Shown here piece after piece: positions 37,609-60,226 of a stretch of DNA of 64,000 bases; position 1 is the first letter of the stretch, and every line of letters starts with the position of its first letter. Source of the stretch: an uncultured Chloroflexia bacterium (GTDB taxonomy: Bacteria; Chloroflexota; Limnocylindria; Limnocylindrales; CSP1-4); assembly GCA_963731635.1 (NCBI GenBank), contig CAVSWB010000001.1:784691-848690 (forward strand), written 5' to 3'. A program made the position numbers and the translations under genes. The notes beneath the pieces are model-generated. The model saw only the letters and a list, made by a program, of their open reading frames with translations, made no database searches and was not told the DNA's origin.

Positions 37609-37828
37609 TCGGATGCCTTGCTACGCTGGCGAGCCCGCTCCCAACTCCCGGGAAGGCTCCGAACGGGTTACCATGTCGCCGTTCCCGGTTCCCACGCCGA
37701 TGGCGTCGTTGCCGAATCAGATGCTCTACGTGCTCTGTGCGGCGATGAGGACCCGACTGGTCGGATCAGATGCTCATCGGATACCGAGTCCGGCGAGCAA
37801 GACCCCCGAGCGTGGGATCGGATGCTCT
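37609..37828 (+). repeat. Dispersed TC(A/G)GATGC(T/C)C copies antisense to the tRNA D/anticodon stem
   Basis: Copies at 37609, 37717, 37766, 37818; 37717-37728 TCAGATGCTCTA is the exact reverse complement of tRNA 37876-37887. Confidence 0.7.
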
Positions 37829-37856: not shown

Positions 37857-37932
37857 GCGCCCGTAGCTCAGTGGATAGAGCATCTGACTTCGGATCAGAT
37901 GGTCGGGGGTTCGAATCCCTCCGGGCGCGCCA
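37857..37932 (+). tRNA. tRNA-Arg (anticodon TCG), CCA encoded
   Basis: Acceptor GCGCCCG/CGGGCGC, D-arm, anticodon stem TCTGA-CTTCGGA-TCAGA, TTCGAAT T-loop, 3' CCA. Confidence 0.96.
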
Positions 37933-38005
37933 ATTCTTGGCTTCGATTCGCCTTCACCGATCCGCTTCTCACCGCTCACGAGTTGCGTCAAACCGCCCGT
38001 GATGA

Positions 38006-38165
38006 GAGTCAGGTTCCCGCTTGGGCTGTCGGTTGAGTCAGATGCCCAGGATTTGAGCCTCGCGGAGTCAGATGCCCACGGTTTGCGAAGTCAGATGCCC
38101 GTGATCAGTCTGCCCTCAAGAATCAGTCTGCCATCAAGATAGCTTGAGTCAGGCAATGTCCTGAC
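38006..38165 (+). repeat. GAGTCAGATGCCC array (4 units, spacing 29/30/23) plus an 18-bp tandem duplication
   Basis: Units at 38006 (degenerate), 38035, 38065, 38088; ATCAGTCTGCC(C/A)TCAAGA x2 at 38104 and 38122. Confidence 0.85.
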
Positions 38166-38471
38166 CGTCAGATCGCCACTTCGCCGGCGGTGTACGCAGC
38201 CGGAGTTATAGGCGGTATCCGGCACCCGCTCGGCTCGCAGCCATGGCATGGGGGGATGCATCTAGGCAAAGCCACCGTTGACTAGATAGGGCCTTCGAGG
38301 GCGACCCATTCGGCCGGCAGGCCACACATTTTGCGCTGCCGGCGAGACCCGATGGACGCCCTCGGCCACTGCATGCGCAAACCCCTAAGCATCGTCTGAG
38401 GAGTCTGGCGCGACGGTGAAGACTGCGACCCCAACTGGGGTCTCGAGGCTTGACAGGAAGCTGTGGGGGAT

Positions 38472-39531
38472 CTAGCTCCAGGGACCGCTGTAAGGCGGAT
38501 ACGACCAGCCGGCTGCCGTCTGCTGGGCATCGAAGACATTCTGGGCGGCGCTTAGGTCGTCAAGAACGGCCTGGGCCTCTGCATTCACAGTGGCATGGGC
38601 GCACGGGCCATTTAGCAGCGCAGCCTTGATCTTGGGGGCGTAGTTCTGCGCGATGGCGAGGTGCTGGCTCTCGTGCCACACGAAGTGGGCCATGACCAGT
38701 TTCCACCAGGGGACCAGAGCGGCAGGCACTCGAGCCGGGCTGGTCCAGTCGGGCAAGATGATGGTATAGCTGGCGGTCAGATCGACCGAGCTGACCGCGC
38801 AAACGCCACTAGCCGCGTCGGTTCGTCCGGCATAGCTCCAGCTATAGGAGGGATAGAAGCAAGCCAGGCTATCCATCATCTTGCAGGCTTTGGTCCCCCC
38901 GGCCTCGGTCGCGTCTATCAGAGCATCCGGAGTATCGCCATCGATGGAGAAGTATTCGACGGTTACCCCGGCAATGGGATACGAGAACTTGGGCAGGGCC
39001 ACCGTACCAGCCGGTGGTGGATCTGTCGGAGCCGTCGTTGCCACAGGGTTTGGGGCTGCTGCTGTCGTGCGGGGAGTGAGGGTCGCGTGAGGAGTCGGGG
39101 TCGTGCGGGGGGTTGGGGCTGCGGTCGTCCGAGGGGTGGAAGTCACCTCGGGAGTGCTCATAGTCGGAATGGCGACGCTCAGCGTAGCGCTATCAGACGC
39201 CTCAGAGCCACCGCCGGTTGGGAGGGCGCTCTGGTCGGAGGCGAGCGCGATCCCGATCGGGTTGTCGGTCGGCTTAGGCTGCGTCGAGGTCGTGCGACCG
39301 AAGACGACTGAGCCGCCCAGTCCGGCGAAGACGAGGGCTATCACCAATAGGAGGCCGACGAATCCCTTGTTCCGTGACGCCGGAGTTCGTGAGACCACGA
39401 GGGGCGTGTTTGCCCGACAGCTATAGCAGCGGGTCGCGCCGGCCCGAATTCAAGGAATGGCAGGCGGGGCAGAACCAGCCGCCAGCGAGGCCGTTGGCCG
39501 GAGCAGGGCTAACCTGATACGGCTCATCCAT
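38472..39531 (-). CDS. RanBP2-type zinc finger - TM - Pro/Thr linker - DUF922 (HExxH) putative metalloprotease; +1 frameshift at ~39444
   Basis: 'WFCPACHSLN(SAGATR)CYSC' once one G is removed; 'VWHESQHLAIAQ' in the C-terminal domain. Confidence 0.75.
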
Positions 39532-40212
39532 AGGCTCATAGTCACGGATGCAGCCGATAGTGCAAGCCGTACCATCGAGCAGGGTCAGGTGTTCGTTGGG
39601 CATGGCAGCCACGTCGCCACGGCATCGGACGAGGAAGTCGCCGAACTTGTGGCTGAGAGCCAGAGAGCTCGCGCCGAACAGTCGCCGGGTGAGAGTGAAC
39701 CCGCTGCGCGGTGCCCACGCCGACCTATAGCTCAATCTCTCACGCTCGCGCCCGTCTAGCGCCGGGTCTGAGACGCTCCCGGCCTCGTGAAGACTCTGGG
39801 TGCGCGTGTACTCGTCGCTCAGACGACCGGGCTTGGCGCCCGACGGGTCGGCTCAAGCCCCAACTGACGTTGTCGACCATTCGACCTGCGGGCATGGCGT
39901 CCGGTGAACTCGAATCCGGTCGACCCTCCAGCCGGAATCGACGGTGTCCGGTAGTCCATCGCACACTCGACGGCTGATTGTGAGGGCAGCGAAGGCAAGT
40001 AACTCTCGCCGGAAATGGGACGCCAGCGACGGTGTTTCACGGCACTCTCGTCCAGGGCTCAGGCGGGGATACGGTCTTGAGATTGGCAGGCCGCTGGACG
40101 ATCAGTTGGGCTCTGGATGACTTCCGGTTACTCCTGAGCCGCCAATGTGACCTGACAATTCGAGTAGGCGCTGCGTGGCCGCCGGCTTAGCCAGACATAT
40201 GAGGGGGAACCG

Positions 40213-43191
40213 ATGAGTCGCAGTGGCAACGTGGCTGGCGAACGCACTCATCGTTTTCTCCCCGGTGCTCTCGTCGGCGTCGCCGCTGCCATGGCAATGG
40301 TGGCGAGCTTGGTGACGGTGACCGCCGTGTCCGCGGTGGCCGGAACGCAACCCCAGACCGTTCAGTTCACCCCCCCATACGACGGCGTCGTTGGCGAGAG
40401 CCTTACGCTCCACGCGACCGCGGCATCAGGCTTGCCCGCTGCCTACTCGCTGGCAACGACGAGCGCCTGCACGATCAGCGGCGCGTCACTGACTTTCGTC
40501 GCCACGGGGAGCTGCGATGTCACAGCTTCTCAAGCTGGTAATGGAACCTGGGCCCCGGCCGCGGGCGTGACCCAGACGATCTACTCAAACCCAGGCTACG
40601 AGGCGACCACGTCGATCGAGACCACCGACGATTCTCCTCGCACTCCCGGAACCATCAAAGTCGGTGACCAGCTCACCGTTGCGCTCGCGGCGTCCGACAG
40701 TACGGCCGTTACCTCTTGCCTCATCAGGATTACGTCCGCGGGTGGCTGGTTGATGGAGAGCCCGGGCTCGGTGGTCGCGGGCCGGTGCACTCTGATGTTC
40801 ACAATCCCTGCCTACACGGACCCAGCGGCGCGATCTCGCGCCAATCGAGTCGACGGCGATCTATGCATCTCGATCATGACTCTGGCCTTTGCGGATGCCC
40901 AATCGCGGTCGATGGTGACCGCCAACCGAGGCACTCCGGGCGGAGTCGACTGCTACAACGGGGGCGACCGGAGCGGGCGAGAGGATAGCGTGCTCGACCT
41001 CCAGGTTCTCGATGGTGGCTCGCCTCAGCCCTTCGTCAGTAACCCCGAGATGGTCAGTTGGAACCCCGCAGATTGGGTCGGGTACCAGCCGCTGCAGTTC
41101 GGCCAGACGGCCCACCTGCAGCTCCCTTCATTCGCAACCAGCTGCCACATATATCTCAACGGCTCATGGCAGACGATCATCTCGCCGCCGACAACAGGCA
41201 CCTGTACAGCTTGGGATGTGCGGCTGCCCGGCGTGTTGCCATCGACCCTGCCGTGGGGAGGGGGCCCCGGCGACTGGCAGGTTGAGGTCGTGGCCAATTA
41301 CTCGACACCCGCAGGTGCCGGGACGGCTATCGGCTCGGTAAACATGCCCTACGCGTCATCGGACGGGATCTTCGAATCAAACCAGCCAGCGATGTTCCCG
41401 ACGGACCTCGCGGCGGCCCGTTTCGCCACCGTTGGGGAAGAATGGACGCCGTCGTTCAAGGTCAGCGGCGTGACCCCTGCCGACTGTCGAATGGAAGTCA
41501 TTACAGTCCCACCGACTTTCCCCATAGATCAGACGACGTTCGCGGACTACGACGCCTCGGCTATCGATGCCGACGGCACCTGCCACTTCGATGTCCCGGC
41601 GTATACCAAGGAGTGGGAATTCCACCAGTACATCGTTGAGGCGAATAGGTACACGAACTCCGACCGCGTGACCTTTGGCGGCTCGATCACGGCTATCGCG
41701 GCGCCTTCCTCACCAGTCATCTCGGATCCAACTACCAGCGCCGGCAGCACGTCGATCGACGTGGCCGCCGGTGCGGGACAAGGCCTGATGCTCGACCTCA
41801 GCGTCGCCCCTAGTCCGGGCCCGGCGCTCGCCGGCCCACAGGATGGCGCGACTCCGGCCGTCACCGGCTGCACCGGGTCGTCGGTTACCGGCGACTTGGC
41901 CAACGGCGGCGCGGTTCCGGACATCACAGCCAGCTGCAAGCTCCCCACGGGAACCTATACAGCACTGGCCCACATGTACGACGCGGCAGGGAAGGTGACA
42001 ACAACAACCCGTCAGTTCACCGTCCCGGCGATCGTCCCCGGAGCCACGTACTACGCCATCTCGCCCGGGCGAGTCCTCGACTCGCGCAGCGGCTTTGGCG
42101 CCGGCCTCTTCCACTCACGCACGAAGCAGAGCTTCCAGGTCACCGGTTTGTGGGGCGTTCCTGCCGGTGCGGTCGCGGTCACAGGCAACGTCACGGTCGT
42201 GGGCCAGACAGCGGCGGGCTACGTAACGGTCGCCCCAAGCCTGACGAGCGGCAGCCAGCCCCTCACCTCGACGATCAACTTCCCGGCCGGCGACATCCGC
42301 GCTAACGGCGTCACGGTGGCTCTCGGTGCCGCCGGCAAGCTCGATGCCATGTACTGGACCGGCAATGCGGCCAACACCACCCAGGTGCTCTTCGATGTGA
42401 CCGGCTACTTCGCCAACGACACGACCGGGGCCACGTTCCACGCTATCGCACCGGGTCGGGTCCTCGACTCGCGCTCTAGCGTCGGGGCGGGCCTGTTCCA
42501 CTCACGGACCAAGCAGAGCTTTGCGGTCACAGGATTGTGGGGCGTGCCTGCAGGAGCGGTCGCGGTTACGGGCAACGTCACGATCACGGGGCAGAAGCGG
42601 ACGGGCTACGTCACGATCGCGCCGAGCCTGACGAGCGCCAGCCAGCCGCAGACCTCCACGATCAACTTCCCGCTCGGGGACACCCGTGCCAACGGGGTGA
42701 CCGTCTCCCTCGGCGCCGGCGGCAGGCTCGATGCCATGTACTGGTCCTCGAGTACCAGCGACACGGTCAACATCATCTTCGATGTGACCGGCTACTTCGC
42801 CAATGACGCCACCGGAGCCACGTTCCACGCCATCACCCCCGGCCGCGTCCTCGACTCGCGCGCGGGCAGCGGGGCGAGCTTGTTCCACTCACGCTCCAAG
42901 CAGAGCTTCGCCATCACCGGGCTCTGGGGCGTGCCAGCCGGTGCTGTCGCGGTAACAGGCAACGTCACAGTGGTCGGCCAGACTGCCGCGAGCTACGTGA
43001 CGGTGGCCCCGAGCCTGACCAGCGGGAGCCAGCCCCTGACCTCGACGATCAACTTCCCCGCGGGTGACATACGCGCCAACGGGGTCACCGTCTCCCTCGG
43101 GGCAGGCGGCAAGCTCGACGCCATGTACTGGACCGGCAACGCGGCCAACACCACTCAGCTGCTGTTCGACGTAACCGGCTACTTCAGCTGA
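40213..43191 (+). CDS. Large secreted protein with three C-terminal ~125-aa repeats
   Basis: Signal peptide; repeats 'GAT(Y/F)(Y/H)AI.PGRVLDSR...GVPAGAVAVTGNVT...STINFP...FDVTGYF'. Confidence 0.8.
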   Translation: MSRSGNVAGERTHRFLPGALVGVAAAMAMVASLVTVTAVSAVAGTQPQTVQFTPPYDGVVGESLTLHATAASGLPAAYSLATTSACTISGASLTFVATGSCDVTASQAGNGTWAPAAGVTQTIYSNPGYEATTSIETTDDSPRTPGTIKVGDQLTVALAASDSTAVTSCLIRITSAGGWLMESPGSVVAGRCTLMFTIPAYTDPAARSRANRVDGDLCISIMTLAFADAQSRSMVTANRGTPGGVDCYNGGDRSGREDSVLDLQVLDGGSPQPFVSNPEMVSWNPADWVGYQPLQFGQTAHLQLPSFATSCHIYLNGSWQTIISPPTTGTCTAWDVRLPGVLPSTLPWGGGPGDWQVEVVANYSTPAGAGTAIGSVNMPYASSDGIFESNQPAMFPTDLAAARFATVGEEWTPSFKVSGVTPADCRMEVITVPPTFPIDQTTFADYDASAIDADGTCHFDVPAYTKEWEFHQYIVEANRYTNSDRVTFGGSITAIAAPSSPVISDPTTSAGSTSIDVAAGAGQGLMLDLSVAPSPGPALAGPQDGATPAVTGCTGSSVTGDLANGGAVPDITASCKLPTGTYTALAHMYDAAGKVTTTTRQFTVPAIVPGATYYAISPGRVLDSRSGFGAGLFHSRTKQSFQVTGLWGVPAGAVAVTGNVTVVGQTAAGYVTVAPSLTSGSQPLTSTINFPAGDIRANGVTVALGAAGKLDAMYWTGNAANTTQVLFDVTGYFANDTTGATFHAIAPGRVLDSRSSVGAGLFHSRTKQSFAVTGLWGVPAGAVAVTGNVTITGQKRTGYVTIAPSLTSASQPQTSTINFPLGDTRANGVTVSLGAGGRLDAMYWSSSTSDTVNIIFDVTGYFANDATGATFHAITPGRVLDSRAGSGASLFHSRSKQSFAITGLWGVPAGAVAVTGNVTVVGQTAASYVTVAPSLTSGSQPLTSTINFPAGDIRANGVTVSLGAGGKLDAMYWTGNAANTTQLLFDVTGYFS

Positions 43192-43506
43192 GAGTTGGCC
43201 TAACGCGAGGGGCAGTCCCCGTGGTCTCCAATCCCTCGGGGTCTGTCTGGAGCATCGAGGGGTTGGTCAACCCGAAGTATGTTGGGATCAGACCTGCGGC
43301 CCTTTGGGTCGTCGACCGGTGGCTTTGCCGGGTTCGTGTTCGGCCTCGAACAGCTGTAGGGGACCATGCTTCGACCGTGTGCCGTCCCGGAGCAAAAGGA
43401 GACGCTTCGCCTGAACCGCTTTGGTCGCTGTCCCGATCAGCGCGATCGACCTTCTCGTCCACGCTACGGTGCGAGCTCCGCACCCAGTCAAACTGAGGGA
43501 GTTTTC

Positions 43507-44175
43507 ATGTCGGATCTTCTCGGCACGCCGGCGGCTCTGACGCCGGACCTGCCGGCTCAACAGCCGGCACAGGCTTCGTCTGCCTACCCCGTCGGCGCGC
43601 CCCAGCCACCGGCACAGCCCGATCCGGGCCAGCCACTCCAGGGCTATCCGCAGCAGGCCGCCCAGAGTTACTCCCCGCCGCCGCAGGGCTACCCGCAACA
43701 GGCCTACGGCTATGGTCAGCCCGCGTTCAACGTGAATGTCGCGGCTCCCGCGATCGTTATGGCACCGCCTTCAGGTCCTGGCTTCGGCGTCCGGGCTGTC
43801 TGGTTCGTATTCATCGGCTGGTGGCTCACCGGATTCATGATCGGGCTCGCCTACTTCCTCGCGCTGACAATCATTGGCCTCCCCGTCGCGTTCTACCTGT
43901 TCAACCGGATCCCGATCTTCCTCACCCTCCGCGGCCGCACCAAGACTTACCGCGCGACCATGGGCCCCGACGGAACCACGACCATGCTCCAGGCGGTAAA
44001 TACGGAGCAACGCCCGATGCTCCAGCGAGCCCTCTGGTTCATCTTCGTGGGTTGGTGGCTCGGCGCACTGTGGATGGGCCTTGCCTACGTACTCTGCGTC
44101 ATCATCATCGGCCTCCCCATCGGCCTCATGATGTTCGACCGCACTGGGGGCGTCATGACGCTCCTGCGCTACTGA
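43507..44175 (+). CDS. YccF-domain membrane protein with Pro/Gln-rich N-terminus
   Basis: Two 'RAxWFxFxGWWL...IIGLP' repeats. Confidence 0.8.
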   Translation: MSDLLGTPAALTPDLPAQQPAQASSAYPVGAPQPPAQPDPGQPLQGYPQQAAQSYSPPPQGYPQQAYGYGQPAFNVNVAAPAIVMAPPSGPGFGVRAVWFVFIGWWLTGFMIGLAYFLALTIIGLPVAFYLFNRIPIFLTLRGRTKTYRATMGPDGTTTMLQAVNTEQRPMLQRALWFIFVGWWLGALWMGLAYVLCVIIIGLPIGLMMFDRTGGVMTLLRY

Positions 44176-44287
44176 TCACAATCTTCCCGCAAGGCATGAA
44201 GACCCGCCAGGCCACGAGCCCGGCGGGTCTCTTGGTAGCTCTACTCCGTCTTGCTTCGACGGCGAAACATATCCACCACGAAAGCGG

Positions 44288-45286
44288 CTACATACGAGCC
44301 AGGAGTTCAGCCTTCTTGGCCTCGAACTCGGCGGCTGTGAGAATGCCCGCGTCTCGGAGCTCGGCCAGTTGCCTGATCTGCTCAGGTATTCCGGGACCGA
44401 CGGCCGCCGGAGCTGCTGCCGGTTGATGTCGAACACGGATTCGCCTGTCGAGTTCCTCCTTGATCGCCCGAAATGCCGGCTCCTGGCCCTTCTTGAACAT
44501 GACCGCGTTCTCGTCCTTCGACGCGATTCGTGCGTCTGAGGATCCGCCCATGAAGCTGAACTGGATGTGACCCAGCCACATCGCTCCCGGGTCGCGCCAT
44601 TGGACGGCCGTGATCTGGTCCAGCGCGATTTCCTTGTCGCCCTTGAGGATTCCCGTCGACAGCGCGCCGCGCATGCCGTGATGCTTGATCCGGATCTGGT
44701 GCTCGAAGAGCCAAAGGTGACCGCCAGCGCCCTCGGCCTCCATCAGAGGCGGTGCTCCGCCGGGCATGTTGCTGTCCCGCATCATGCCGGAGCCTGGAAC
44801 GACGGTCCCTGGCGCGAAGCCCGGGATAGATTTGGCTCCGGCGGAGACCAGCCATTCAAGTTCGCCCCTGGCCGCCGGGTCGATTTGGCCATCCACCCGC
44901 ACCGCGTCAAGTAAGTCCGCAACATTCGTCGCGGTCGGTTCGGTCCGACCGATCGAAGGTCCCCGGAATTGCGCCCATTCGAGCAGATGGCCGTCACCGA
45001 ACGCCATCGTGCTCAGATTCTCGTATGGGTAGACCGAAAGTCGACTCTTCTTCCAGATGAAGCCTCGAGAGTCCGTGCCAACGAGTGCACTCCCTCGTTG
45101 CCCGGGGATGATCACCCTCACGTCCTCTTGCGGGCCGAGCATCGCGTCGAGCGCCTGGTTGGCTTCCTTGGACAGCCTGGATCGGTCGTTGTAGGGCGGC
45201 TTGTTGCCAACCAAGGGAGGATCTCCTCTCGCCGGGATTCCGGCATCGCTTCCAGTATTGCCCAGTGTTCTGGCGCGAGGGCCCAT
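44288..45286 (-). CDS. PH-like/DUF4429 + SHOCT domain protein
   Basis: 'GDKEIALDQITAVQW...GHIQFSFMGG...DENAVMF', C-terminal 'IRQLAELRDAGILTAAEFEAKKAELL'. Confidence 0.75.
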   Translation of the reverse strand: MGPRARTLGNTGSDAGIPARGDPPLVGNKPPYNDRSRLSKEANQALDAMLGPQEDVRVIIPGQRGSALVGTDSRGFIWKKSRLSVYPYENLSTMAFGDGHLLEWAQFRGPSIGRTEPTATNVADLLDAVRVDGQIDPAARGELEWLVSAGAKSIPGFAPGTVVPGSGMMRDSNMPGGAPPLMEAEGAGGHLWLFEHQIRIKHHGMRGALSTGILKGDKEIALDQITAVQWRDPGAMWLGHIQFSFMGGSSDARIASKDENAVMFKKGQEPAFRAIKEELDRRIRVRHQPAAAPAAVGPGIPEQIRQLAELRDAGILTAAEFEAKKAELLARM

Positions 45287-45347
45287 GGTCAACGTCCACT
45301 CGGCCCGAACCCGCGAGTGTGGCGGGAGCGGGTCGTCCGTCACGCAA

Positions 45348-46407
45348 TTACAGACCCGGCCAGGCCCATCGGTCCGAGGCGTCGAACGCGGCCTGATCGG
45401 CAGCCAGCCGAGCGCTGACAGGAGCTATGACCGCGGCTTGATCGGCAGACTTGCACGGGCCGGCGAGGATGGCGCTCCTGTATTGATCTTCATAGCCTTG
45501 TGCGATCGCAAGATGCTGGCTTTCGTGCCAGACGATGTGGTCCATGGACACGCGCCACCAGGCCGCCAGAGCGGGCGACACCTGGGCCGGCGAAGTCCAT
45601 TGCGGCAACACGATCCAATAAACCGGAGTGAATGTGACCGAGGTCACGGTGCAAACCTGTGTCTGGGCGTCGACTGAGATCCGGTAGGTCCAATTGAAGG
45701 TGTGGTAGAAACAGGCCGCCGCGGGCTCTCCGCCGCAATTTGTGGGTCCGGCCGCCATTACGGCCGAAATGACAGCCAATCTGGTCGAGCCGGAGACCTC
45801 GAAATACTGAACGGCCGTGTCGGGAATAGTTACCGGGATGACAGGTAGAGGGACCGTTGCAACCGGGGGCTCGGTAGTGGGCGGTGGGGTCGGCGCGCTC
45901 GTTGGGGCGACCGTGGGAGCGTGGGTCGAAGCCGGCTTTGGAGGGCTCGTCGGGCGGGCGGTCCGGGCCGGGGCCTGGGTCGCCCTGACCGTCGGAGTCG
46001 GTGGCGCAAACGACGGAGTCGGAGTCGGAGCCGGGGCCGAAGCGACCACCGTGCTTGAGGGCGTGTCTGTCGCGACGCGGGTTTGCGTCGAGTCAGGCGC
46101 GACAATAGCGACGCTGACATAGGCGATCGGATCCGTACTTCTCGTCGAAGCGGTCGGGGAGATCTTCCCGGTTACAGCGGCGGTCCCAGCGACCAGGCCA
46201 ACGACCGAAATCAGGAGTGCGAGGACCGCTATGACTCTCGTCGGACGTGAGGACGATCTCGCGGCATGAAGGTTTGTGAAGCGCGAGATCGCGCGACACC
46301 TGTAGCAATGCCTGGCGTTGCGATTGTTCAACGAGCGACAGGATTTCGCAGACCCAACTGCCGTCCGCGAGGACTTGTGTTTCAGGTGTGGCGTCAAGCG
46401 GGCCCAT
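45348..46407 (-). CDS. Second RanBP2-type zinc finger - TM - DUF922 protease paralog; +1 frameshift at ~46345
   Basis: 'WVCE(S)CRSLNNRNARHCYRC' once one A is removed; 'IVWHESQHLAIAQ'. Confidence 0.75.
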
Positions 46408-46430
46408 GGCTCGATAGTATCGGCGGCGTG

Positions 46431-46880
46431 ATCGCGCGGGCAATAGGACTCGAGGCGCCCCATTTGCCATGTCACATCGTGGCGCCGGACCATGTCCGCG
46501 AGGATCTCATGCGGCTCTACCGGCGCATGACCTTCAACGTGCTCGCGGGTAACCGCGACGACCACCTGCGCAACCATGGCTTCCTCCGGCATGCCGACGG
46601 GTGGCGACTCGCACCGGCATTCGACATGAACCCGTCACGAGAGACGCGCGAGCACGCGACCGCGGTCAACGGCAAGGTGGACTCGCCAGACGCCCGGGAT
46701 GTGCTCGAGGTCCGCGCCTTCTTCGGGCTGAGCGAAAAGGCGGCGAGGGACGTCATTGCCGATGTGGCCGATGCTGTGAGCGAGTGGCGGTCCATAGCCG
46801 GCTCGGTCGGCATTGGCCGGACGGAGCAAGATCAGGTCGCGGTCGCGCTCAGCGCCCTGTCGAGCGCGGCGACTCTGTGA
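46431..46880 (+). pseudogene. HipA-family kinase C-terminal remnant
   Basis: 'FNVLAGNRDDHLRNHGFL', 'WRLAPAFDMNP'; N-terminal lobe missing. Confidence 0.8.
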
Positions 46881-47074
46881 GCCGGGATGGAACTCGAGTT
46901 GCCCCGGCCAGGCTCGATCGCCTGATCGGCTGGCGGCGATGGCCTCAGAGTCGAGGCGGATAACCAGGTCCTGTGGGCGACGGCGGGGACTTGGGGACGC
47001 GAACGCCCCGCGACCAGCGGCAGATCTCGGTGGAGCGTGGAGTAACAAGTAACTAAGATGCTCGTATCGCGTAC

Positions 47075-47102
47075 TTGACTTGCGCGTTAATGACGCGACA
47101 AT
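47075..47102 (+). promoter_or_regulatory. Sigma70-like promoter with internal palindrome, probably leaderless
   Basis: TTGACT-16-GACAAT; CGCGT-TAATG-ACGCG in the spacer; ATG 7 nt downstream with no SD. Confidence 0.6.
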
Positions 47103-47108
47103 CTCGCC

Positions 47109-47705
47109 ATGACAAAGCCAATGGATCGTACGGGACTTGAAGGAGCTCTCGCCGCACTCGGGGACGTGCTCGCCTACAGGGGCGAGGCGTACGAGATCGT
47201 GCTCGTCGGGGGCGGGGACCTCGTACTTCGCGGCATCGTCTCGCGGTCCACCAAGGATGCCGACATCGTGGGCCAGCGTCTGGGCAACGGCCGCATCGTG
47301 CCGCTCCGCAGGCTTCCCGATGCCCTCGCGAAGGCTGTGTCCGAGGTTGCGGAAGCGCACGACCTCGCACCCGACTGGCTCAACGTCGGGCCGGAGTCGC
47401 TACTCGACCTCGGGCTTCCGGCCGGCTTCGAGGACCGGCTCACCGCGAGGCACTACGGCGGCCTGACGGTCTGGCTCGCAGGCCCGTACGACCTTGTCTG
47501 CTTCAAGCTGTACGCGGCCACCGACCACTGGCCGAGCCGAGACCGGCATCTCGACGACCTGCGCGCCCTCCGTCCTACCGAGGCTGATCTGCTTTCTTCG
47601 GCCCGCTGGTCGATGACCCACGATCCCTCACCAGCGTTCCGGGGCCAGCTCGTCGCCGTGCTCGCGCACCTCGGGGTGGAGGACGCCGATGCTCGCCTCG
47701 ACTAG
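47109..47705 (+). CDS. DUF6036-like nucleotidyltransferase
   Basis: 'IVLVGGG', 'RSTKDADI', 'DLVCFKLYAA...RHLDDL'. Confidence 0.8.
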   Translation: MTKPMDRTGLEGALAALGDVLAYRGEAYEIVLVGGGDLVLRGIVSRSTKDADIVGQRLGNGRIVPLRRLPDALAKAVSEVAEAHDLAPDWLNVGPESLLDLGLPAGFEDRLTARHYGGLTVWLAGPYDLVCFKLYAATDHWPSRDRHLDDLRALRPTEADLLSSARWSMTHDPSPAFRGQLVAVLAHLGVEDADARLD

Positions 47706-48583
47706 CCTGCGACGCGCATCTATCGATCGGATCGCGGCGGGCTGGATCGCTCTCGGCGGGCAGCTCGAGGGCGATCCGGATGCCACGGTCGTCGATCCCG
47801 AAGCCCTGATCGTCGCCACGGCCGAACTCGCCCGTGACGAGGACCGCATCATTGGCGTGGCTCTCGACTGGTGCGTCGCCTACGGCGACGTCGGTCAACT
47901 CATCGCGTCTGCGACGCATCGCCCGAGCGATGGACGCGACCGCCGCCCTCGCTTCCTTCGCGGCTGCGGTCGGCGCATCTGGCGGCCCGAAATGGTCCGA
48001 AGGCGAGGGGGCCACGCCGATGGCGGCTTCGTTGCGCGGCAAGGTCGCCGTCCGGGACCTTTCGGCTCCCGCCCGTCTCGTATGGCGGCTGCGCTCGGCT
48101 TTCGGCGTCAACGCGAGAGCCGACATCCTCGCTTTGCTGCTCTCGTGCCCTGCCGGGACGGAGATGCGCGTCGCCGACATCGCCCGCCGAACCGGGTTCT
48201 CCAAACGCAACGCCGCGATCGCCATCGAGTCCATGGCGCTTGCAGGCGTCGTCGAGGCCGACCGGAAGGGCAACTCGGATCGGGTGGCGCTTCCGGTCGA
48301 TTCGCCGCTTCGCGCCTTCCTGCCGCGCCCCGTCGCGGCGCCCGATTGGACCTCTCGCTGGACCGTTGCGATCGAGATGCTGCGCCTCGTCGAACGGCTC
48401 GCAGACGCTCCTGATGGAGCGGTAATCGTGGAAGAGCGGCTCGCGGCCGAGTCGCTCGGCCCGAAGCTGCGCGACGCCGGCCTGCCCCGGCCCGACCTCA
48501 CCGTCCGAGGCTCGGCCTTCGCCGCTTCCTTTGATGCCTGGATCGGGGCCCTCGCCGCGGCTTTGTCCGATCTGGCGCAGTAG
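47689..48583 (+). CDS. Partner protein with winged HTH (putative antitoxin); +1 frameshift at ~47893
   Basis: SD GGAGG, overlaps the NTase stop; 'DWCVAYGDV|VNSSRLRR'; HTH 'VADIARRTGFSKRNAAIAIESMALAGVV'. Confidence 0.65.
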
Positions 48584-48824
48584 GTTTCCCTCGCTCTTTC
48601 TCTGGGGTCGTGCAACGCCGACCGAGCTATCACTCGCCCGGCAAATGCGAAGCGTCCGCGCCACTAATCGGACACCGCATCTTGGCTGGTGAGACCTCGA
48701 CGCACTCGAATCGGGTGCGGGCCCGCCATCCGGAGCCAATGGCGATCCCATCGCCGGCTGGCTCAGTAGATCGTCTGTGGGCGAAGGCGTCAGCGTCGAG
48801 GCGTATAATTCGCACCATCATCGT

Positions 48825-48920
48825 GGGCATTTGAAGAGGCCCGATCCACCAGAGGGCATCGGACTCTTTCGGGTTCACGCGATGGGACGAAGACTCTCTC
48901 CGGGGCGGGAATCCTGACTC
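48825..48920 (-). repeat. Inverted copies of the GAGTCAGATGCCC motif left of the att duplication
   Basis: Reverse complements: 48907-48920 GAGTCAGGATTCCC, 48884-48896 GAGTCTTCGTCCC, 48854-48866 GAGTCCGATGCCC, 48825-48837 weak. Confidence 0.65.
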
Positions 48921-49004
48921 ACCCCGGAATTGACGAAAACGGCGTCCTCGCGCTGGCCGTTCCAAGCACGAATCGACTCTAGCTGCTCGCCCCGACGGGA
49001 AGCG

Positions 49005-49052
49005 GACTTCGGATCAGATGGTCGGGGGTTCGAATCCCCTCCGGGCGCGCCA
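49005..49052 (+). repeat. att site: duplicated 3' part of tRNA-Arg
   Basis: GACTTCGGATCAGATGGTCGGGGGTTCGAATCCCCTCCGGGCGCGCCA; begins 2 nt before the anticodon loop. Confidence 0.95.
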
Positions 49053-49129
49053 CTCTTTGAGCGTGCAACAGCACATGCGTTCGAGGGCGAGGGGCACTGA
49101 GCGGCACATTCCGGCATCATTCGGCGCCG

Positions 49130-49153
49130 AGATTGCTACATAGATTGCTACAT
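49130..49153 (+). repeat. 12-bp tandem repeat AGATTGCTACAT x2 (candidate integrase arm site)
   Basis: Perfect tandem repeat 78 bp right of the att duplication. Confidence 0.6.
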
Positions 49154-49301
49154 TGACGATCGTCGAAGTAGCCTCGCTCGGGGCACGCTCCTCAGGACCT
49201 ATCGACCGGATGTCGGCCTCGAGCAGGCCGCCAAGAAGTCGTACCTCCTTATCTGATGAGATCGATCGGCTAACCACGAGGTTATCGAAGCGCCCGGTTG
49301 A

Positions 49302-49444
49302 GAGTCTGATGCCCGCTCGCGCGTGCCGGTGGAGTCAGATGCCCGCGATTTGAGCCTCGCGTAGTCAGATGCCCGCGGTTTGCGGAGTCAGATGCCCGCA
49401 AGCTCGGTTTCCTTCGATTTGCCTGAACGGGCAATGCCCTGACT
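49302..49444 (+). repeat. Second GAGTCAGATGCCC array (4 units, spacing 30/30/23), homologous to 38006-38165
   Basis: Units at 49302, 49332, 49362, 49385; shared spacers GATTTGAGCCTCGCG and CGGTTTGCG; shared distal GGCAATG(C/T)CCTGAC. Confidence 0.88.
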
Positions 49445-49504
49445 TGTGAATCACGAACGTGGTGTCGCCCAGCCTGTCGAGACCGGCGGCCGTCACCCAA
49501 TGGG

Positions 49505-50517
49505 CTACGAGCGACGGATTGCCTTTCGCCTCCCAGTCCGAATGTACGAGGAGACCCATGTCTTGGTGCTGTACCAGCCGTTCGACTGTCGAACTGCCCG
49601 AGGGCATTCCGCTCGGCGGCCCTCCGCAAGGCGAGCGCGGATACGGACTTGGTGGCGAGCGCAGACAACGGCAGGAGCTGGTGTGGACCGCCAAGCGCGG
49701 GAAGAAGGAACCTGTCTAGGCAGTCCTTGACCGCTCGAGCGATCATCTCGCCGAGCAACCCGTAATCTCCGTGATCTGCCCGATCAAGCGCGCGCAGGTA
49801 CTTCGCGCGATCCTTCTTGTAGATGATGGCCGGAGCGAGGCCGTGTCGAACAAGCAGAAGGTTCAGCACGAGCCGGCCGGTTCGCCCGTTGCCGTCTCGG
49901 AACGGATGGATGCCCTCGAACCCCGCGTGTACCCGTGCCAGATGCTCTATCACGGTTTGACCTGGCTCCGGCTCGCTGTTGCCCAAGCGTAGCCAGTCCG
50001 AAATCTGGGGCGGCACATCAGTGAAATCCGGTGGAGTCATCCCGCCAGGGAACGGCTTGATGTTGTGCTGGCGAAAGCCACCCGGCGTCTCCCCGGGTAG
50101 CAGATCGTCTGGCGGCTGAACCTGCCAGGCAGGTCCGACGACTCTGGTGTGGATCTCGCGCAATTCCGTGAGCGTGATGTAAGGATCGCACCGCTCGGTC
50201 TCACGGTCGCGGCCCTGTGCGTACACCCACTCGGCGGCGTCCGCGTAACCCTTCACTTCGAGATACTCGGCAAGTTGCTTGTCCCCGACCGCCTGGCCGG
50301 TATCGAGGAGTTGACGTACCTCCTTGAGGATGAGCGTGTTGCCCTCAATTGCGGTCGAGTTGTGCGTCTCCTCGTACCAGATGCCTGCCCAGATGTCCCC
50401 CGCGACATCCGGCCGGGGCAATCCGCCGATGCGGTTCAGTTCTGTCGTGGCCTGCTCGACCGCGGCGTAGATCGAGACCCGGCTGGGCCGCCCTCGGCCT
50501 TCCTTCGTGATCACCAC
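49505..50517 (-). CDS. Class II Fic family protein with C-terminal helical extension; 1-bp deletion near 49598
   Basis: HPFRDGNGRTGR catalytic motif; inhibitory 'STAIEGN'; the C-terminal 'AVRQSNGWYSTKTWV' is in a shifted frame. Confidence 0.88.
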
Positions 50518-50518
50518 C

Positions 50519-50608
50519 TGTGGTACGCCTCCCCTTCGCAAAATGGACCGTACCACAACGGTATCTTGTGGTACGTCGGAGGTCAAGTAAATGGACCGTA
50601 CCACAACG
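50519..50608. promoter_or_regulatory. Four-site CGTACCACA operator array at the fic 5' end
   Basis: Alternating orientation at 50519, 50549, 50566, 50597; perfect 10-7-10 IR at 50549-50575; 20-bp direct repeat at 50541/50589. Confidence 0.75.
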
Positions 50609-50624
50609 AGGTCTCACCAACCGG

Positions 50625-50741
50625 CCGTGGGGCAGGACGGTCTCTCTGGGAGCGGGCGGCAAGCTCGATGCCATGTACTGGAATGGCAGCGCGTCGAACG
50701 CGACGCAGATCCGCTTCGGTGTTACTGGCTACTTCAGCTGA
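50625..50741 (+). pseudogene. Orphan C-terminal fragment of the repeat domain found in 40213-43191
   Basis: 'TVSLGAGGKLDAMYWNGSASNATQIRFGVTGYFS*' is close to the last 35 aa of 40213-43191. Confidence 0.8.
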
Positions 50742-51152
50742 GCCCGGCGGTCGATCGGAGCTCGCTCAGGTCGATCGCTCACGATAAGGTCATGGTGACG
50801 AGGAGGCGCGAGGGTTGGGCCGGAGGTGATTTCTGTTCCGCCAGATCTAAGCGCTGGCATGGATTTCGGCCCACTCTTCCACGGTTCGCAATTCCTCCCT
50901 CGCAGGCGGCTTCATGTGCTCCAAGCTGGGCTCGTTTGGTCGAGACCGCCAGGCATGGCGTCGCCCTCCGTCTCGTCCGCCCTGTTGCCCACACGCACCC
51001 CGCAATGTCGCGTAGGGACTAATGGCTCTTCTGTGCCACCCTCAGGTCCCGGAACATCCGTTTCGGCCCCGCCCTCCGAGGTCCTATGCCGATCCACGGA
51101 GCGCACACGTGGCCCGCCGGGGCAGCCGGCTGCAGGATGGAGGTCCGGTTAG

Positions 51153-53828
51153 ATGGCGAAATGCACCCGAGCTATGCGTCTCGTGGCGAGTGCCGCGCTG
51201 GTCGGCTCGCTTGTCGCGACCGTCTCCGCACCTGCCGCGCTCGGGGCGATCGCCTCTCGAATATCGATCCCTTCGGTCGCCGCGGTCCCCGTTACCGCGT
51301 CAGGGGCGGCCTCGGTGAACGGCACGGTCACCAACACCGCTGGTCAGCCCATCGACGGGCTTGAAATCCTGCTCGCCGGCACAGACGGCAGCACGTCCGC
51401 CGGCTTTTCGGATGCGCAGGGAACCTTCTCCGTTTCAGCCGCCGCAGGCGACTATGTTCCCTACTTCATCGATAGCTCTGGCTCCTACGTCTACGGCTGC
51501 TATGAGGGGACGACGGCTCCTGGGCAGTTCGCGGCGCTGACGGGTCCAGTCAACTGCGCAATGATCACGCTCTCCTCTGGCGAGACCTTCCGAATCGACG
51601 CGACGATCCCTCACGCCCGGCACATCACGGGCACAGTCGCAGGTTCCGACGGAACCCGGTTGGGGAGAGTGTTGATTGACGCGACGGACGCCAACGGGAA
51701 CGCTCAGGCCGAGACCAGGGCGGGTACGGATGGCAACTTCTCGATGACGGTGCCCGTGGGTAGCTATCAGATCCGTGTCTATGACACCACCGTCGGTACA
51801 ACCGCCTACGCGGGTGGCTGCTACAACCACGCGGACACCGGCAACCTCTCGATCGACAACCTGGCGTGCCAGTCGCTCGACGTGACCAAGTCGGATGCCA
51901 CCGGTGTCAACCCCATCCAGCCGACGGAAACTCTAAACGGGTTCACGATCAGCGGCACAGTGACTGGCCTGAACGGCTCCGCGCTGCCTTACATTCAAGT
52001 CGATGCCTGGGACGGCACGGCAGGCTGGGGCAACCCTGGCCTCACCTTCACCGACGCGAACGGCTCCTACGCGTTGACGGTCCCACAAGGCAATTACCAG
52101 GTCAGCGTCACCGACTGGGGGCAGACCCATGCGGGCGGCTGCTACAGCCAGACCGCGGCCGGCAACGTCTCGACCGACTACTCGGCCTGTCTACCAGTCA
52201 GCGTTGCCTCGGACGTCACGGGGATAAGCATGTCCTTGCCGATCGGCGGACAGACCCCGACGGGCGCGGACGTATCGGTGACGCCGTCTGATAGCAGTGG
52301 GTCCTTCGTCAACGCGAGCGTCAGCTTCGGCCAGGTCGACTCGCCGGGCACGACTACGCTCCAGACGTCAACCTCCGGGCCCCAGTCGAGCGGCTTCAGC
52401 GTTGGTCTCAGCCCCACCTACTACGACATCACCACTGTCAATGTGGCCTACACCGGACCGGTGACCGTGTGCCTGCCGTTCGACGTAGCTGCCTACTCGG
52501 ATGCATCGTCTCTTCGCCTGTACCACTTCGACAACGGCGCCTGGAAGGACGTCACAACCAGCATCAGCTACTTGCCGCCCACGATCTGTGGAGTCACGGC
52601 CTCTCTGTCGCCCTTCGTGGTCGGGCAGGCTCCGGCTCAGCAGTCCCAGTCGATCACTTTTGGTCCTCTCGCGGCGAGAGTCTACGGCGCCACCTCGATC
52701 ACACTCGCTGCGACAGCATCTTCTGGTCTGATGGTCAGCTACACAACCACGGGCCCTTGCACGGTCAGCGGAGGCGGGCTCACGATCACGGGTGTCGGCA
52801 CCTGCACAGTAGATGCGTCCCAGTTCGGCAACGCGAGTTGGGCCGCTGCGACGCCCGTGAGTCAGCCTTTCAGGATTGCTCCCGCTGCCCTTACGATCAC
52901 CGCGCCAAGCGTCAGCCGGTCGTACGGCGCTGCCAACCCGGCGTTCACTCCAACCTACTCGGGTTTGGTGGATGGAGACACTGCGTCCAGCCTGACTACT
53001 GCGCCGGCCTGCACCACCACTGCCACCTCTACCAGCTCGGTCGGGACCTACCCGATCAACTGCTCGGGCGCGGTCGATCCGAACTACAGCTTTAGCTACG
53101 TCGCCGGCACCCTCAGAATCGCGATCGCCGATCGGTTTGTGACCTCGACCAACACGGCGCTCAACGTCGCCGCGCCTGGTTTCCTCGCCCTCACCCAAGC
53201 CCCAGGCGCGACGGTCGTGATCTCGACCAAGCCCGCGGGCAAGCTCACCCTCGGCTCCAACGGCTCCTTCATCTACGTCCCCAAAACAGGCTTCCGCGGC
53301 ACTGACAGCTTCGCCTATCGCCTGAGCCTTGGCGGGACTCTCTCGGCTCCCGTGACCGTCACGATCTACGTGGTCGGCATGGGCGTCAACTGCGCCAAGT
53401 GCAATCTGTCCGGGCTCGGCCTATCGGGCGCGAACCTGCTCGGCGCCAACCTAGCCTCCGCGAACATGGCGGGAGCGCGGCTCGACCACGCCATCCTGGT
53501 GCTGTCGAACCTCTCGGGGGCCGATCTCTCGTACGCCACCCTCGATCACGCGATGCTGACCCTGGCCAACCTCTCCAGGGCGACACTCACCAGCGCCAAC
53601 CTAACCGCCGCCAATTTGATCTTGGCGAACCTCTCCGGGAGCACTCTCACCAGCGCCGATCTGACCGGCGCGAACCTGACGGGTGCCAATCTCGCGGGCG
53701 CGAATATGGCGAGCGCAACCCTGACGGGCGCGACGGTCAGCGGCGCCGGATGGTCCAAAACCGTCTGCCCGGATGGCAGCAACGCCAACAAGGATGGCGG
53801 CACCTGCGTCGGCCACTTCAAGCACTAG
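51153..53828 (+). CDS. Large secreted multidomain protein: carboxypeptidase-regulatory-like repeats, MBG-like, Ig-like, C-terminal pentapeptide repeats
   Basis: Signal peptide; 'ISGTVT...FTDANGSYAL' repeats; 'SRSYGAANPAFTPTYSG'; 'YVPKTGFRGTDSFAY'; (A/S)(N/D)L(S/T)x repeats. Confidence 0.8.
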   Translation: MAKCTRAMRLVASAALVGSLVATVSAPAALGAIASRISIPSVAAVPVTASGAASVNGTVTNTAGQPIDGLEILLAGTDGSTSAGFSDAQGTFSVSAAAGDYVPYFIDSSGSYVYGCYEGTTAPGQFAALTGPVNCAMITLSSGETFRIDATIPHARHITGTVAGSDGTRLGRVLIDATDANGNAQAETRAGTDGNFSMTVPVGSYQIRVYDTTVGTTAYAGGCYNHADTGNLSIDNLACQSLDVTKSDATGVNPIQPTETLNGFTISGTVTGLNGSALPYIQVDAWDGTAGWGNPGLTFTDANGSYALTVPQGNYQVSVTDWGQTHAGGCYSQTAAGNVSTDYSACLPVSVASDVTGISMSLPIGGQTPTGADVSVTPSDSSGSFVNASVSFGQVDSPGTTTLQTSTSGPQSSGFSVGLSPTYYDITTVNVAYTGPVTVCLPFDVAAYSDASSLRLYHFDNGAWKDVTTSISYLPPTICGVTASLSPFVVGQAPAQQSQSITFGPLAARVYGATSITLAATASSGLMVSYTTTGPCTVSGGGLTITGVGTCTVDASQFGNASWAAATPVSQPFRIAPAALTITAPSVSRSYGAANPAFTPTYSGLVDGDTASSLTTAPACTTTATSTSSVGTYPINCSGAVDPNYSFSYVAGTLRIAIADRFVTSTNTALNVAAPGFLALTQAPGATVVISTKPAGKLTLGSNGSFIYVPKTGFRGTDSFAYRLSLGGTLSAPVTVTIYVVGMGVNCAKCNLSGLGLSGANLLGANLASANMAGARLDHAILVLSNLSGADLSYATLDHAMLTLANLSRATLTSANLTAANLILANLSGSTLTSADLTGANLTGANLAGANMASATLTGATVSGAGWSKTVCPDGSNANKDGGTCVGHFKH

Positions 53829-54258
53829 GCAGCGCGCATTGAACCTCGGCGCCGTCATAGCCGCCGTTGGCCTCATACCCGGGATTGGGTCCTGGGTGAT
53901 GCCAGTCGGCGTCATGATTGCTGCTGTGGGCAGCCTGATGAGCTGGATCGACGATACCTTCTGCGGCGACCATGGCGACGCCATCAACCTCCCCGTCATC
54001 GGACCTGACAACATCGGGTGTTGAACGGTGAACCTGCAGGCTGTCGATTTCCTACTGGTAGCACTTGTGATGCTGCTGGTCGGCACCGTCCTCTGGCGAC
54101 GATCTGCCCGACAGACTCCCGGGCTCGCTCGTGGGCATGATCACCTAAACCGGCCCCACTTTCGGCCGGTTCGATCATCAGAGTTGGCCCCACCCCCGAC
54201 CTCAATTCCGTAGGCTCGATTGGTCTTGCGAGGCCATCACGAGCGACGGAGGAAGGAG

Positions 54259-55797
54259 TTGTCGAGGGTGGAGCAGTTCGAGCGTATCCGCCGAGACCAC
54301 CGGGAGGAAGGGGTGTCGATCCGCGAGTTGGCGCGCCGTCATGGGGTGCACCGGCGAGCGGTCCGCCAGGCCCTCGCCTGCGCGGTCCCGCCGCCACGCA
54401 AGCCCGTCGAGTCGCGGGTCGCACCGGCGGTCGGACCGCATGCGGCCACCATCCGGGCCTGGCTCGCCGCCGACGCCGAGGCACCGCGAAAGCAGCGCCA
54501 CACGGCCCGGCGGATCTGGGAGCGCCTCCTCGATGAGCACGGCGCCGATGTGGCCGAGAGCACCGTCCGCCGCTATGTCCGCGAGTGCCGCCGCGAGCTG
54601 CACCTCGAGCACCGCGACGTCGCGATCGTGGCTCATCATCTGGCTGGCGCGGAAGCTCAGGTCGACTTCGGCCTGGCCGACGTGATCATGGCCGGCGAGC
54701 GCACCTCGGTCTCGGTCTTCGAGCTGCGCCTGTCCCATTCGGGCGTCGCTATCCACGTCGCCTTCGGATCGGAGGGCCAGGAGGCGTTCCTCGAGGGCCA
54801 CGTCACCGCCTTTGCCCGCATCGGCGGGGTGCCGGCCCGGATGCGATACGACAACGCCCGCTCGCTCGTGGCCCGAGTCCTGCGCGGACGCGACCGAACC
54901 GAGACCGAGCGTTTCATCGCCCTGCGCTCCCACTATGGCTTCGACTCCTTCTTCTGCATCCCGGGCGAGGAAGGTGCCCACGAGAAGGGCGGTATCGAGG
55001 GCGAGGTCGGCCGCCAGCGCCGCCACTTCTTCGTGCCGGTGCCCACGGTGAAGAGCCTCGCCGATCTCAACCGCCGCCTCGAAGAGGCGGACCGGCGCGA
55101 CCTCGCCCGCCACATCGGCACCCGCCGTCTGACCGTCGGGACGATGGGCGAGGCCGATCGGGCGGCATTGCAACCGCTGCCTGATGCTCCCTTCGATGCG
55201 GCCCGGATCGCGACCGTCCGGGTCGACTCCAAGGCCCGGGTCTGCGTCCGCCAGTGCTTCTATTCGGTGCCAGCCAGATACGCCGGCAGAGCGCTATCTG
55301 CTCGGATCGGAGGCACCCGTATCGAGGTCGTCGATGGCGGCACAGTCGTCGCCTCCCACGAGCGCAGCACGATCCGGGGCAGCCAGACCCTGGTGCTCGA
55401 CCACTATCTGGAGATCCTGTCCCGCAAGCCAGGCGCGATGCCCGGTGCCCTCGCGACCCATCAGGCCCGTGAGCGGGGCGTGCTCACGGCCGCACATGAG
55501 GCGTTCTGGGCCAGGGCGCGACGCAAGTTCGGCGACGCGGGCGGCACGCGGGCGCTTATCGAGGTGCTCCTGCTCCACCGGCGGATGCCATTCCCGGCGG
55601 TCCACGCCGCTCTCGAAGCCGTCAACTCCACGGGCTCGGCAGATCCGGCGCTCGTGGCCATCGAGGCCCGGAGGATCGCCGAGCACCGCGGCCCGACCGG
55701 CTCGACCGTTCCTTCGGCGACCCATCTGGCGCGCTATGACCGGTCGGCTCCGGTCCTGACCGTCTATGACGGCCTCCTTGGGAGGACTGCCCGATGA
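54259..55797 (+). CDS. istA: IS21 transposase
   Basis: N-terminal HTH, 'QVDFG', 'RYDN', 'HEKGGIEGEVG', 'YSVP'. Confidence 0.93.
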   Translation: MSRVEQFERIRRDHREEGVSIRELARRHGVHRRAVRQALACAVPPPRKPVESRVAPAVGPHAATIRAWLAADAEAPRKQRHTARRIWERLLDEHGADVAESTVRRYVRECRRELHLEHRDVAIVAHHLAGAEAQVDFGLADVIMAGERTSVSVFELRLSHSGVAIHVAFGSEGQEAFLEGHVTAFARIGGVPARMRYDNARSLVARVLRGRDRTETERFIALRSHYGFDSFFCIPGEEGAHEKGGIEGEVGRQRRHFFVPVPTVKSLADLNRRLEEADRRDLARHIGTRRLTVGTMGEADRAALQPLPDAPFDAARIATVRVDSKARVCVRQCFYSVPARYAGRALSARIGGTRIEVVDGGTVVASHERSTIRGSQTLVLDHYLEILSRKPGAMPGALATHQARERGVLTAAHEAFWARARRKFGDAGGTRALIEVLLLHRRMPFPAVHAALEAVNSTGSADPALVAIEARRIAEHRGPTGSTVPSATHLARYDRSAPVLTVYDGLLGRTAR

Positions 55798-56576: not shown

Positions 56577-56730
56577 TCTAGAGACCTGTCAGAAGGCCAT
56601 CACACCGGTCGGGGTGGGGCCAACTCTGGTGATCAGGGTGGAGCCACTTGACGTGATCATTCCCAGCGCGTTCTACCTGATAGTGCCTCGCCGGGCTGTG
56701 GAGCTGCTGCCATGGGGCTACCGTAGGGTT

Positions 56731-60199: not shown

Positions 60200-60226
60200 T
60201 CCCGCCCGAGAAGTCAGGCCGCTTGT

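Follow-up and report, generated by a model that had tools for sequence, protein, structure and literature searches.

In integrons, the simple tyrosine recombinase IntI1 acts at attI1, a site with the core-like accessory repeats DR1 and DR2, and integrase-less cassettes are arranged in tandem; these cassettes recombine via a folded, single-stranded attC and adjoin intI and the promoter. For the recombinase TnpI, the internal resolution site of Tn4430 joins an IR1–IR2 core to the accessory motifs DR1–DR2, and these accessory sites give the synapse its form and the exchange its direction (PMC2847244). Most integrases from phages and from integrative and conjugative elements (ICEs) have their direction controlled by a separate arm-binding domain—410 phages bear integrases with such a domain versus 27 with simple ones (PMC8138268). 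On the level of whole islands, four sources describe cis-mobilizable elements (CIMEs) and tandem accretion at the attachment (att) sites of ICEs and of integrative and mobilizable elements (IMEs; PMC5704250, PMC7563491), tycheposon islands at tRNA genes that use Xer-like, tRNA-specific recombinases (bioRxiv 10.1101/2020.12.28.424599), and the ssrA islands of Dehalococcoides as a related case (PMC3146451). The stretch analyzed here—64,000 nucleotides, C1:784691-848690 of a 3.25-Mb assembly in four contigs, hereafter the window—holds integrase-less islands that are stacked at a tRNA-Arg(TCG) gene and carry arrays of a 13-mer, GAGTCAGATGCCC, resembling the half-site of their own att core.

We consider it fairly probable that these 13-mers are accessory protein-binding sites, putatively bound by an integrase of the type termed IntA here that acts in trans, and that they belong to a ~650-bp att module of non-autonomous islands whose docking point is the anticodon loop of tRNA-Arg(TCG). 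The bound protein would then be the recombinase itself, and extra recombinase-binding sites are what the 13-mers most likely represent. The comparisons of sequence that follow support the idea of core-like accessory sites; their binding protein and their function we infer. The features concerned are, in window coordinates:

37857-37932, plus strand: gene for tRNA-Arg(TCG), forming the attL core of E1 (ARAGORN; Rfam tRNA, 74 bits; sequence)
37878-37890: B half-site GAGCATCTGACTT of tRNA-Arg(TCG) (sequence)
37888-37894: anticodon loop CTTCGGA of tRNA-Arg(TCG), the presumed overlap (sequence)
37895-37904: C' half-site TCAGATGGTC of tRNA-Arg(TCG) (sequence)
37933-49052, plus strand: island E1, 11.1 kb, without integrase (att repeat; Pfam; no PF00589 match inside)
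38006-38100, plus strand: right-arm (P') array of E1, direct sites F1–F4, 74 bp after the tRNA end, spacing 29/30/23 bp
48825-48920, minus strand: left arm (P) of E1, array of four degenerate sites in inverted orientation (sequence; positions conserved across junctions)
48997-49052, plus strand: core of the E1/E2 junction (sequence; alignment)
49302-49397, plus strand: right-arm (P') array of E2, four direct sites, spacing 30/30/23 bp

The initial annotation of this DNA had described two four-unit direct arrays, and these are real: the copies start at 38006/38035/38065/38088 and at 49302/49332/49362/49385, have 0–2 mismatches, and cluster in a manner far from chance. Counted over the whole window at ≤3 mismatches, the motif is not significantly enriched (34 observed vs 27 expected). 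The 13-mer is specific to this tRNA-Arg locus: 25 of the 27 matches at ≤1 mismatch in the assembly fall within C1 822–915 kb, a 92-kb hotspot, and three GAGTC-N5-CCC within 110 bp occur genome-wide only there. A motif density equal throughout the genome, named at the outset as the outcome opposed to a role at this locus, is thus not what is found. The four inverted and more degenerate copies annotated at 48825-48920 could likewise be verified. They start at 48825 (GGGCATTTGAAGA), 48854 (GGGCATCGGACTC), and 48884 (GGGACGAAGACTC), with the last at 48907-48920 (GGGAATCCTGACTC), and share their orientation with the tRNA 5' half-site; they have in common mainly GGG...GACTC, and just one lies within 1 mismatch of the motif. 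Their positions are conserved over five junctions, a and b in 5/5, c in 4/5, and d in 3/5.

The proposed likeness to the core half-site holds as well. Read on the other strand, the tRNA 5' half-site is AAGTCAGATGCTC and agrees with the motif at 11/13 positions; the element-side half-site of the E1/E2 core, GGGAAGCGGACTT at 48997-49009, agrees at 9/13. As copies of the core half-site, the sites correspond to 10 bp from the anticodon and D stem together with 3 bp from the loop. An alignment of the right arms of E1–E5 with those of two relatives within the genus, L002 and L009 (seven elements from three genomes), reveals where constraint acts: pairwise identity amounts to 96.6% in the columns of F2–F4 and 86% in F1, compared with 74.6% in the inter-site spacers and 54% in the flanks. 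The alignment also bears out that the spacers and a distal GGCAATG(C/T)CCTGAC are conserved between arrays. Exact arrays recur in 4 of 51 genomes of the genus, and the same module is found on nine metagenome contigs—one of which is a 4.5-kb cassette between two junctions.

The 3' part of tRNA-Arg(TCG), which begins in the anticodon arm at GACTTCGG and has its second copy at 49005-49052 (with one additional C), occurs five times downstream of the gene (C1 833695, 858567, 904621, 909946, and 914687), and therefore several islands lie in tandem: six att cores delimit five att-flanked intervals, stacked at one tRNA-Arg(TCG) site. Self-comparison and alignment show a common arm structure at each of these copies. 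Left of each internal core, ~200 bp are conserved and bear three to four inverted sites, ~90 bp away from the core; right of each core, ~450 bp are conserved, with four direct sites from 74 bp past the tRNA end. E2 marks an exception, whose direct sites begin 248 bp past the tRNA end because of an insertion between core and array. An internal junction is hence passed in the order of three to four degenerate inverted sites, core, and four direct sites, and in sequence looks like an attP with left-arm sites, core, and right-arm sites. The tandem stack therefore assigns the array at 49302-49397 to the next island, E2, as its right arm. The original statement that arrays flank both att junctions accordingly stands insofar as sites lie on both sides of every internal core; the two direct arrays, though, belong to two islands, E1 and E2. 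E2 measures 24.9 kb, and E4 and E5 have ~5 kb each. The one interval left, of 46 kb, is a composite that includes a gene for tRNA-Thr(CGT) together with separate att repeats belonging to it. Further att fragments, decayed but with arrays of three sites, are present at 851.4, 854.2, and 889.3 kb, and fragments of the acceptor end only at 915.7 and 918.45 kb. The stacked islands account for a 90-kb variable region of the genome.

A motif search of other genomes led to the likely enzyme, via contig L001, where arrays and a partial tRNA-Gln lie upstream of a Xer-like integrase, IntA. Three further genomes of the genus (G022, G016, and G026) encode homologues with ~50% identity, which start ~170 bp past tRNA-Arg(TCG), and IntA follows tRNA-Gln(CTG) in L001, L018, L045, L046, and L050. 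Between the tRNA and the folded domains of IntA lie four half-site-like copies with a spacing of 24/30/29, oriented as the tRNA 5' half-site—that is, opposite to the direct array of the window. This array overlaps the 5' coding end of the integrase, after a GGAGG-ATG start and in varying frames. By visual reading, the spacers of the window array, once inverted, match those of the IntA array: their lengths are 16/17/10 compared with 16/17/11, and both have ACGG and TTTGA in common.

IntA has SAM_1 and Phage_integrase as its only Pfam domains (G022, G026, L001) and aligns over the whole XerC model from residue ~61, with a score under the cut-off. Among solved structures, XerA and XerD come closest, with 5vfz (Brujita integrase) as a weak match, and integron-integrase models score far under their cut-offs. 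In the AlphaFold2 model, which rests on a shallow alignment, the folded domains are confident, and residues 1–43 show no secondary structure at a predicted local distance difference test score below 50. Neither Pfam nor the XerC alignment nor the AlphaFold2 model reveals an arm-binding domain in IntA, as judged from the homologues of sister genomes, not of this genome. By the terms of PMC8138268, a protein of this kind, with core-binding and catalytic domains only, counts as a simple tyrosine recombinase.

Several side observations concern the integrase-bearing elements. A second, paralogous Xer-like recombinase, IntB, is encoded convergently to IntA in several of them, not in all:

L001:1307-2113; L036:6730-7686; L038:8652-9602; L041:14504-14992; L050:11070-11981: IntB

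An obligatory partnership of IntB with IntA is ruled out, as IntB is absent from L045 and L046. Straight after the CCA end of the tRNA, these elements carry a perfect or near-perfect 20-bp palindrome, AACCACAACATGTTGTGGTT (L015:2560-2580, minus strand; likewise L016, L040, and L042), which is absent from the integrase-less islands. A copy of GAGTCCGATGCCC at L038:14658 was considered as the far end of the G016 element and discarded; because no core lies nearby, it is taken as a chance match. Upstream of the tRNA gene of the window, three direct copies of G(G/A)ATC(A/G)GATGCTC at 37714, 37763, and 37816 (37714-37828 in all, ~50 bp apart) match the half-site on the host side. L002 has them too, and L015 has them in part, but they are absent from L130 and L040. 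A required host-side array of such GGATCAGATGCTC copies is ruled out, since the tRNA is occupied even in these two genomes, where L130 has an F-type island and L040 an IntA element.

In part, the sites follow the target tRNA. Arrays of tRNA-Gln elements read GG(G/T)CACCTGACTC, matching the stem of that tRNA. More generally, a half-site-based scan covered 26 loci from several phyla, not all of them independent, in which an integrase homologue lies just downstream of a tRNA (≤3 mismatches of 13 nt). Within 350 bp downstream, these 26 loci contain 28 copies of the half-site of their own tRNA, compared with 1–7 in other 350-bp windows of the same loci and 2.5 ± 1.7 (maximum 9) for shuffled half-sites, so that the own half-site is about ten-fold enriched; foreign half-sites occur at ~0.15 per locus. 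The initially proposed integrase layout with core-like accessory arrays is therefore strengthened by the two-domain integrase of the sister genomes and by the family-wide half-site copies, with binding of the arrays by the integrase as its putative part.

How does this compare with the described systems? TnpI likewise has no arm-binding domain, and its accessory sites repeat the recombinase's own motif beside the core; it differs by resolving cointegrates, by having two accessory sites on one side only, and by the lack of a tRNA target (PMC2847244). Here, three to four sites with putative binding lie on each side of an integrative att site. Still, the pairing typical of TnpI and IntI—a two-domain recombinase and half-site copies at fixed positions beside the core—is present, in IntA of the relatives and in the arrays. 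Integrons differ: the islands are joined by tRNA-derived duplex sites, ~650-bp att modules with a tRNA part, span 5–25 kb with multiple genes, and have no resident integrase, and no intI-like integrase is encoded at the ends of the array. The Lambda type resembles the locus in its accessory arrays on both attP arms around a core in the tRNA anticodon loop, but its arm sites are unlike the core sites, and an arm-binding domain at the N-terminus recognizes them (PMC8138268), whereas IntA has no such domain and the sites are core-like. The Brujita integrase is a two-domain protein that integrates a mobile element (Lunt & Hatfull 2016 via PMC8138268); it is described as working without arm sites, whereas the IntA family retains conserved multi-site arrays.

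With CIMEs, tycheposons, and ssrA islands, the islands share the pile-up of att-flanked elements without an integrase, brought about by repeated integration at a single tRNA or tmRNA gene, with partial tRNA copies in between. Unlike in that accretion, no cognate autonomous element was found in this array or assembly; recombinase-less att-flanked elements in tandem are what the locus itself presents. Multi-site core-like arrays are not mentioned in the examined passages of that literature. Tandem integrase-less att-flanked elements (PMC5704250; bioRxiv 10.1101/2020.12.28.424599) and, for TnpI and attI1, core-like accessory sites are thus already known. In the literature, we found no description of a tRNA-targeting system that pairs a two-domain integrase with conserved multi-site core-like arrays on both arms.

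For the mechanism, we propose that a two-domain Xer-like IntA would be supplied in trans and would bind the sites by its ordinary core-binding and catalytic domains. Extra protomers on both arms would then assemble into a higher-order synapse and in this way determine selectivity or direction, similar to DR1/DR2 for TnpI. In autonomous relatives, occupancy of the array over the 5' end of the integrase gene would also repress this gene, while the islands of the window would be passengers moved in trans.

A number of observations weigh against this proposal. The right-arm array of the window is inverted relative to those of the integrase-bearing relatives, and the left-arm sites are degenerate, retaining mainly GGG...GACTC. 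The host tRNA stem of G026 differs by a C-G pair, yet its array retains CATCTGA, and the arrays of L046 and L050 have drifted to CGCCTGACTC; the sites thus covary with the target only in part. A search for the attR of the IntA elements, within 10–32 kb, found none for any of them. In addition, a tblastn search of the assembly with IntA and IntB yielded no homologue above 39% identity (best 36–39%), no sampled genome has both IntA and this type of array, and all nine metagenome copies of the module—as every copy of this array type found elsewhere—come without integrase.

The initial annotation had suggested looking for the cognate recombinase beyond position 64000 or elsewhere; a place simply beyond that position is not borne out by the tblastn result. 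A search for PF00589 found no integrase in E1, E2, or the other short intervals, and none lies at either end of the tandem array. Near the hotspot, PF00589 matches are confined to the 46-kb interval and associated with tRNA-Thr; an integrase just past the window is ruled out, as the matches at C1 867–879 kb belong to the tRNA-Thr(CGT) locus, set apart by its own att repeats at 877895 and 886387. Since the assembly has a completeness score of 68.8%, absence of the integrase from the genome is not proven.

Because the arrays of the relatives have the opposite orientation and overlap the integrase start, autoregulation would be an equally good role for them. Taken further, the arrays might mainly be operators, at which a recombinase or repressor acts on the neighboring gene—the integrase, or the first cargo gene in islands—without any role in synapsis. 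In L015, L017, L040, L045, and L001, the array indeed lies just past the GGAGG-ATG start within the first ~45 integrase codons and is translated in varying frames (ASD, ASD, GHLT). Integrase-less islands, however, retain near-perfect arrays of inverted orientation beside different genes or no conserved gene, and the second set of sites, at a constant distance on the far side of the core, has no gene start near it. Operators alone are hence quite improbable in our view, even though an operator role can coexist with recombinase binding. Unlikely, too, is that the arrays bind a separate accessory protein and not the integrase. Candidates for it would be a directionality factor or excisionase, an architectural protein of the host, or the protein encoded by a 78-codon open reading frame (ORF). 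This explanation draws on the letters best conserved over all sites, which are GAGTC and CCC and not the stem core, on the small conserved ORF abutting the array in E3, E5, and L009, and on the persistence of islands without any integrase. It has difficulty with sites that track the tRNA half-site in distant homologues with other targets; moreover, E2, L002, and L130 have intact arrays although the small ORF is absent or diverged in them, its third-position bias is weak, and no conserved Xis-like gene was seen beside IntA.

Inert relics of dead elements, either scars or gene-converted remains, would fit a genome with no integrase found, many frameshifted cargo genes, and many more decayed att fragments in the hotspot. 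Yet motif columns at 97% versus flanks at 54% between elements of different genomes speak for constraint, gene conversion would not leave out spacers in such a pattern, and scars would have the tRNA 3' half, not the 5' half-site. Iterons of the plasmid type would call for a replication gene, and none is associated with the arrays, whose distances to the core are fixed. Relics and iterons together are thus very unlikely, and core-like sites for a recombinase acting in trans remain the reading we favor.

The remaining features of the two islands in the window are:

38101-38331: right-arm conserved extension of E1 (alignments; ORF analysis)
48921-48996: conserved block between left-arm array and core, ACCCCGGAATYGAC...GCCGTTCCAMGCAC (alignment)
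49053-49301: E2-specific extra sequence, ~174 bp, between core and array, which are 74 bp apart in other islands (alignment)
49398-49444: distal conserved piece of the E2 arm, terminating in GGCAATGCCCTGAC, where likeness to other islands ends
49053-64000, plus strand: left part of island E2 (24.9 kb in total, to C1:858613, beyond the window end)

The right-arm extension of E1 includes a palindrome, GTCAGG-N6-CCTGAC at 38148-38165, and a frameshifted remnant of the 78-codon minus-strand ORF; only as far as the palindrome is the extension present in all relatives. This distal palindrome (38148-38165; 49431-49444; CAGGCAATGYCCTGAC in relatives) is the last arm feature kept in all of them, with half-sites oriented oppositely to those of the core. 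The 78-codon ORF itself (TITGVSRNLVPAGALICTEVGAD...) is located at C1:858835-859071, C1:910218-910454, and L009:1993-2229, and ends ~65 bp from the array; it is intact in E3, E5, and L009, carries a frameshift in E1 and E4, and is lacking from other islands. As for the ~250 bp conserved past the array, an RNA finds no Rfam match, and a universal small gene is ruled out by its absence from E2, L002, and L130.

As cargo, E1 carries two DUF922 genes, one YccF-like and one DUF4429/SHOCT gene, a 992-amino-acid ORF that matches nothing in Pfam, and a pair made up of a DUF6036 nucleotidyltransferase and its winged helix-turn-helix partner. Such a nucleotidyltransferase and partner are what the right-end genes of E1 and E5 encode, which rules them out as a novel recombinase. 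Within the window, E2 encodes a Fic protein, a large pentapeptide/Ig-repeat protein, and an IS21-type istA/istB pair. The array of E2 lies inside the tail of the Fic ORF (49282-50604, minus strand). The final ~54 codons of this 440-amino-acid frame (49282-49444, minus strand) are att arm—array and distal palindrome—and probably represent read-through into the arm, not a protein domain. The initial claim that the arrays are not coding repeats is therefore maintained on other grounds: with the E2 array in an open frame, it rests on conservation at the DNA level, in both orientations, and not on the absence of an ORF.

Insertion sequences (ISs) were noted as well. The istA/istB pair is present twice with 96% identity, at 54220-56576 of the window and at C1:901965-904501, where it abuts the left arm of the fourth att copy and has removed one left-arm site. 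Another IS, with inverted ends like GAGTCGCGACATAGGTGACAC, was seen in three genomes (L002:1780-3130; L049:702-; L042:14690-14748), inserted in the T-arm/acceptor part of a tRNA-Arg(TCG) copy, which suggests a target preference for the tRNA-Arg att region. Some 20 kb past the window end, tRNA-Thr(CGT) (G000 C1:868447-886443) recurs with its 3' part at 877895 and 886387 and is flanked by Xer-like integrases at 867377-868360 (minus strand) and 868716-869595 (frameshifted), with one more at 878046-879182. This locus is a second tandem docking site, nested within the tRNA-Arg hotspot.

On a larger scale, one might imagine a tRNA-anchored form of gene capture in the soil Chloroflexota of this genus, which we put forward as a doubtful but conceivable picture. 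A small Xer-like integrase would act in trans to move islands with a standard att module of four plus four core-like sites; in other strains, this integrase has a fixed place behind the same tRNA and no detectable far end—much as the integron integrase is placed beside attI—and the orientation of the array would separate passenger cassettes from the integrase-bearing platform.

If binding is confirmed, the locus would offer a minimal and testable model for the rise of arm-dependent control: a two-domain Xer-like integrase may reach a multi-site intasome by repeating its core half-site on both arms. Half-site copies ≤350 bp from a tRNA would then also be a signature for finding such elements, together with their integrase-less passengers, in metagenomes.

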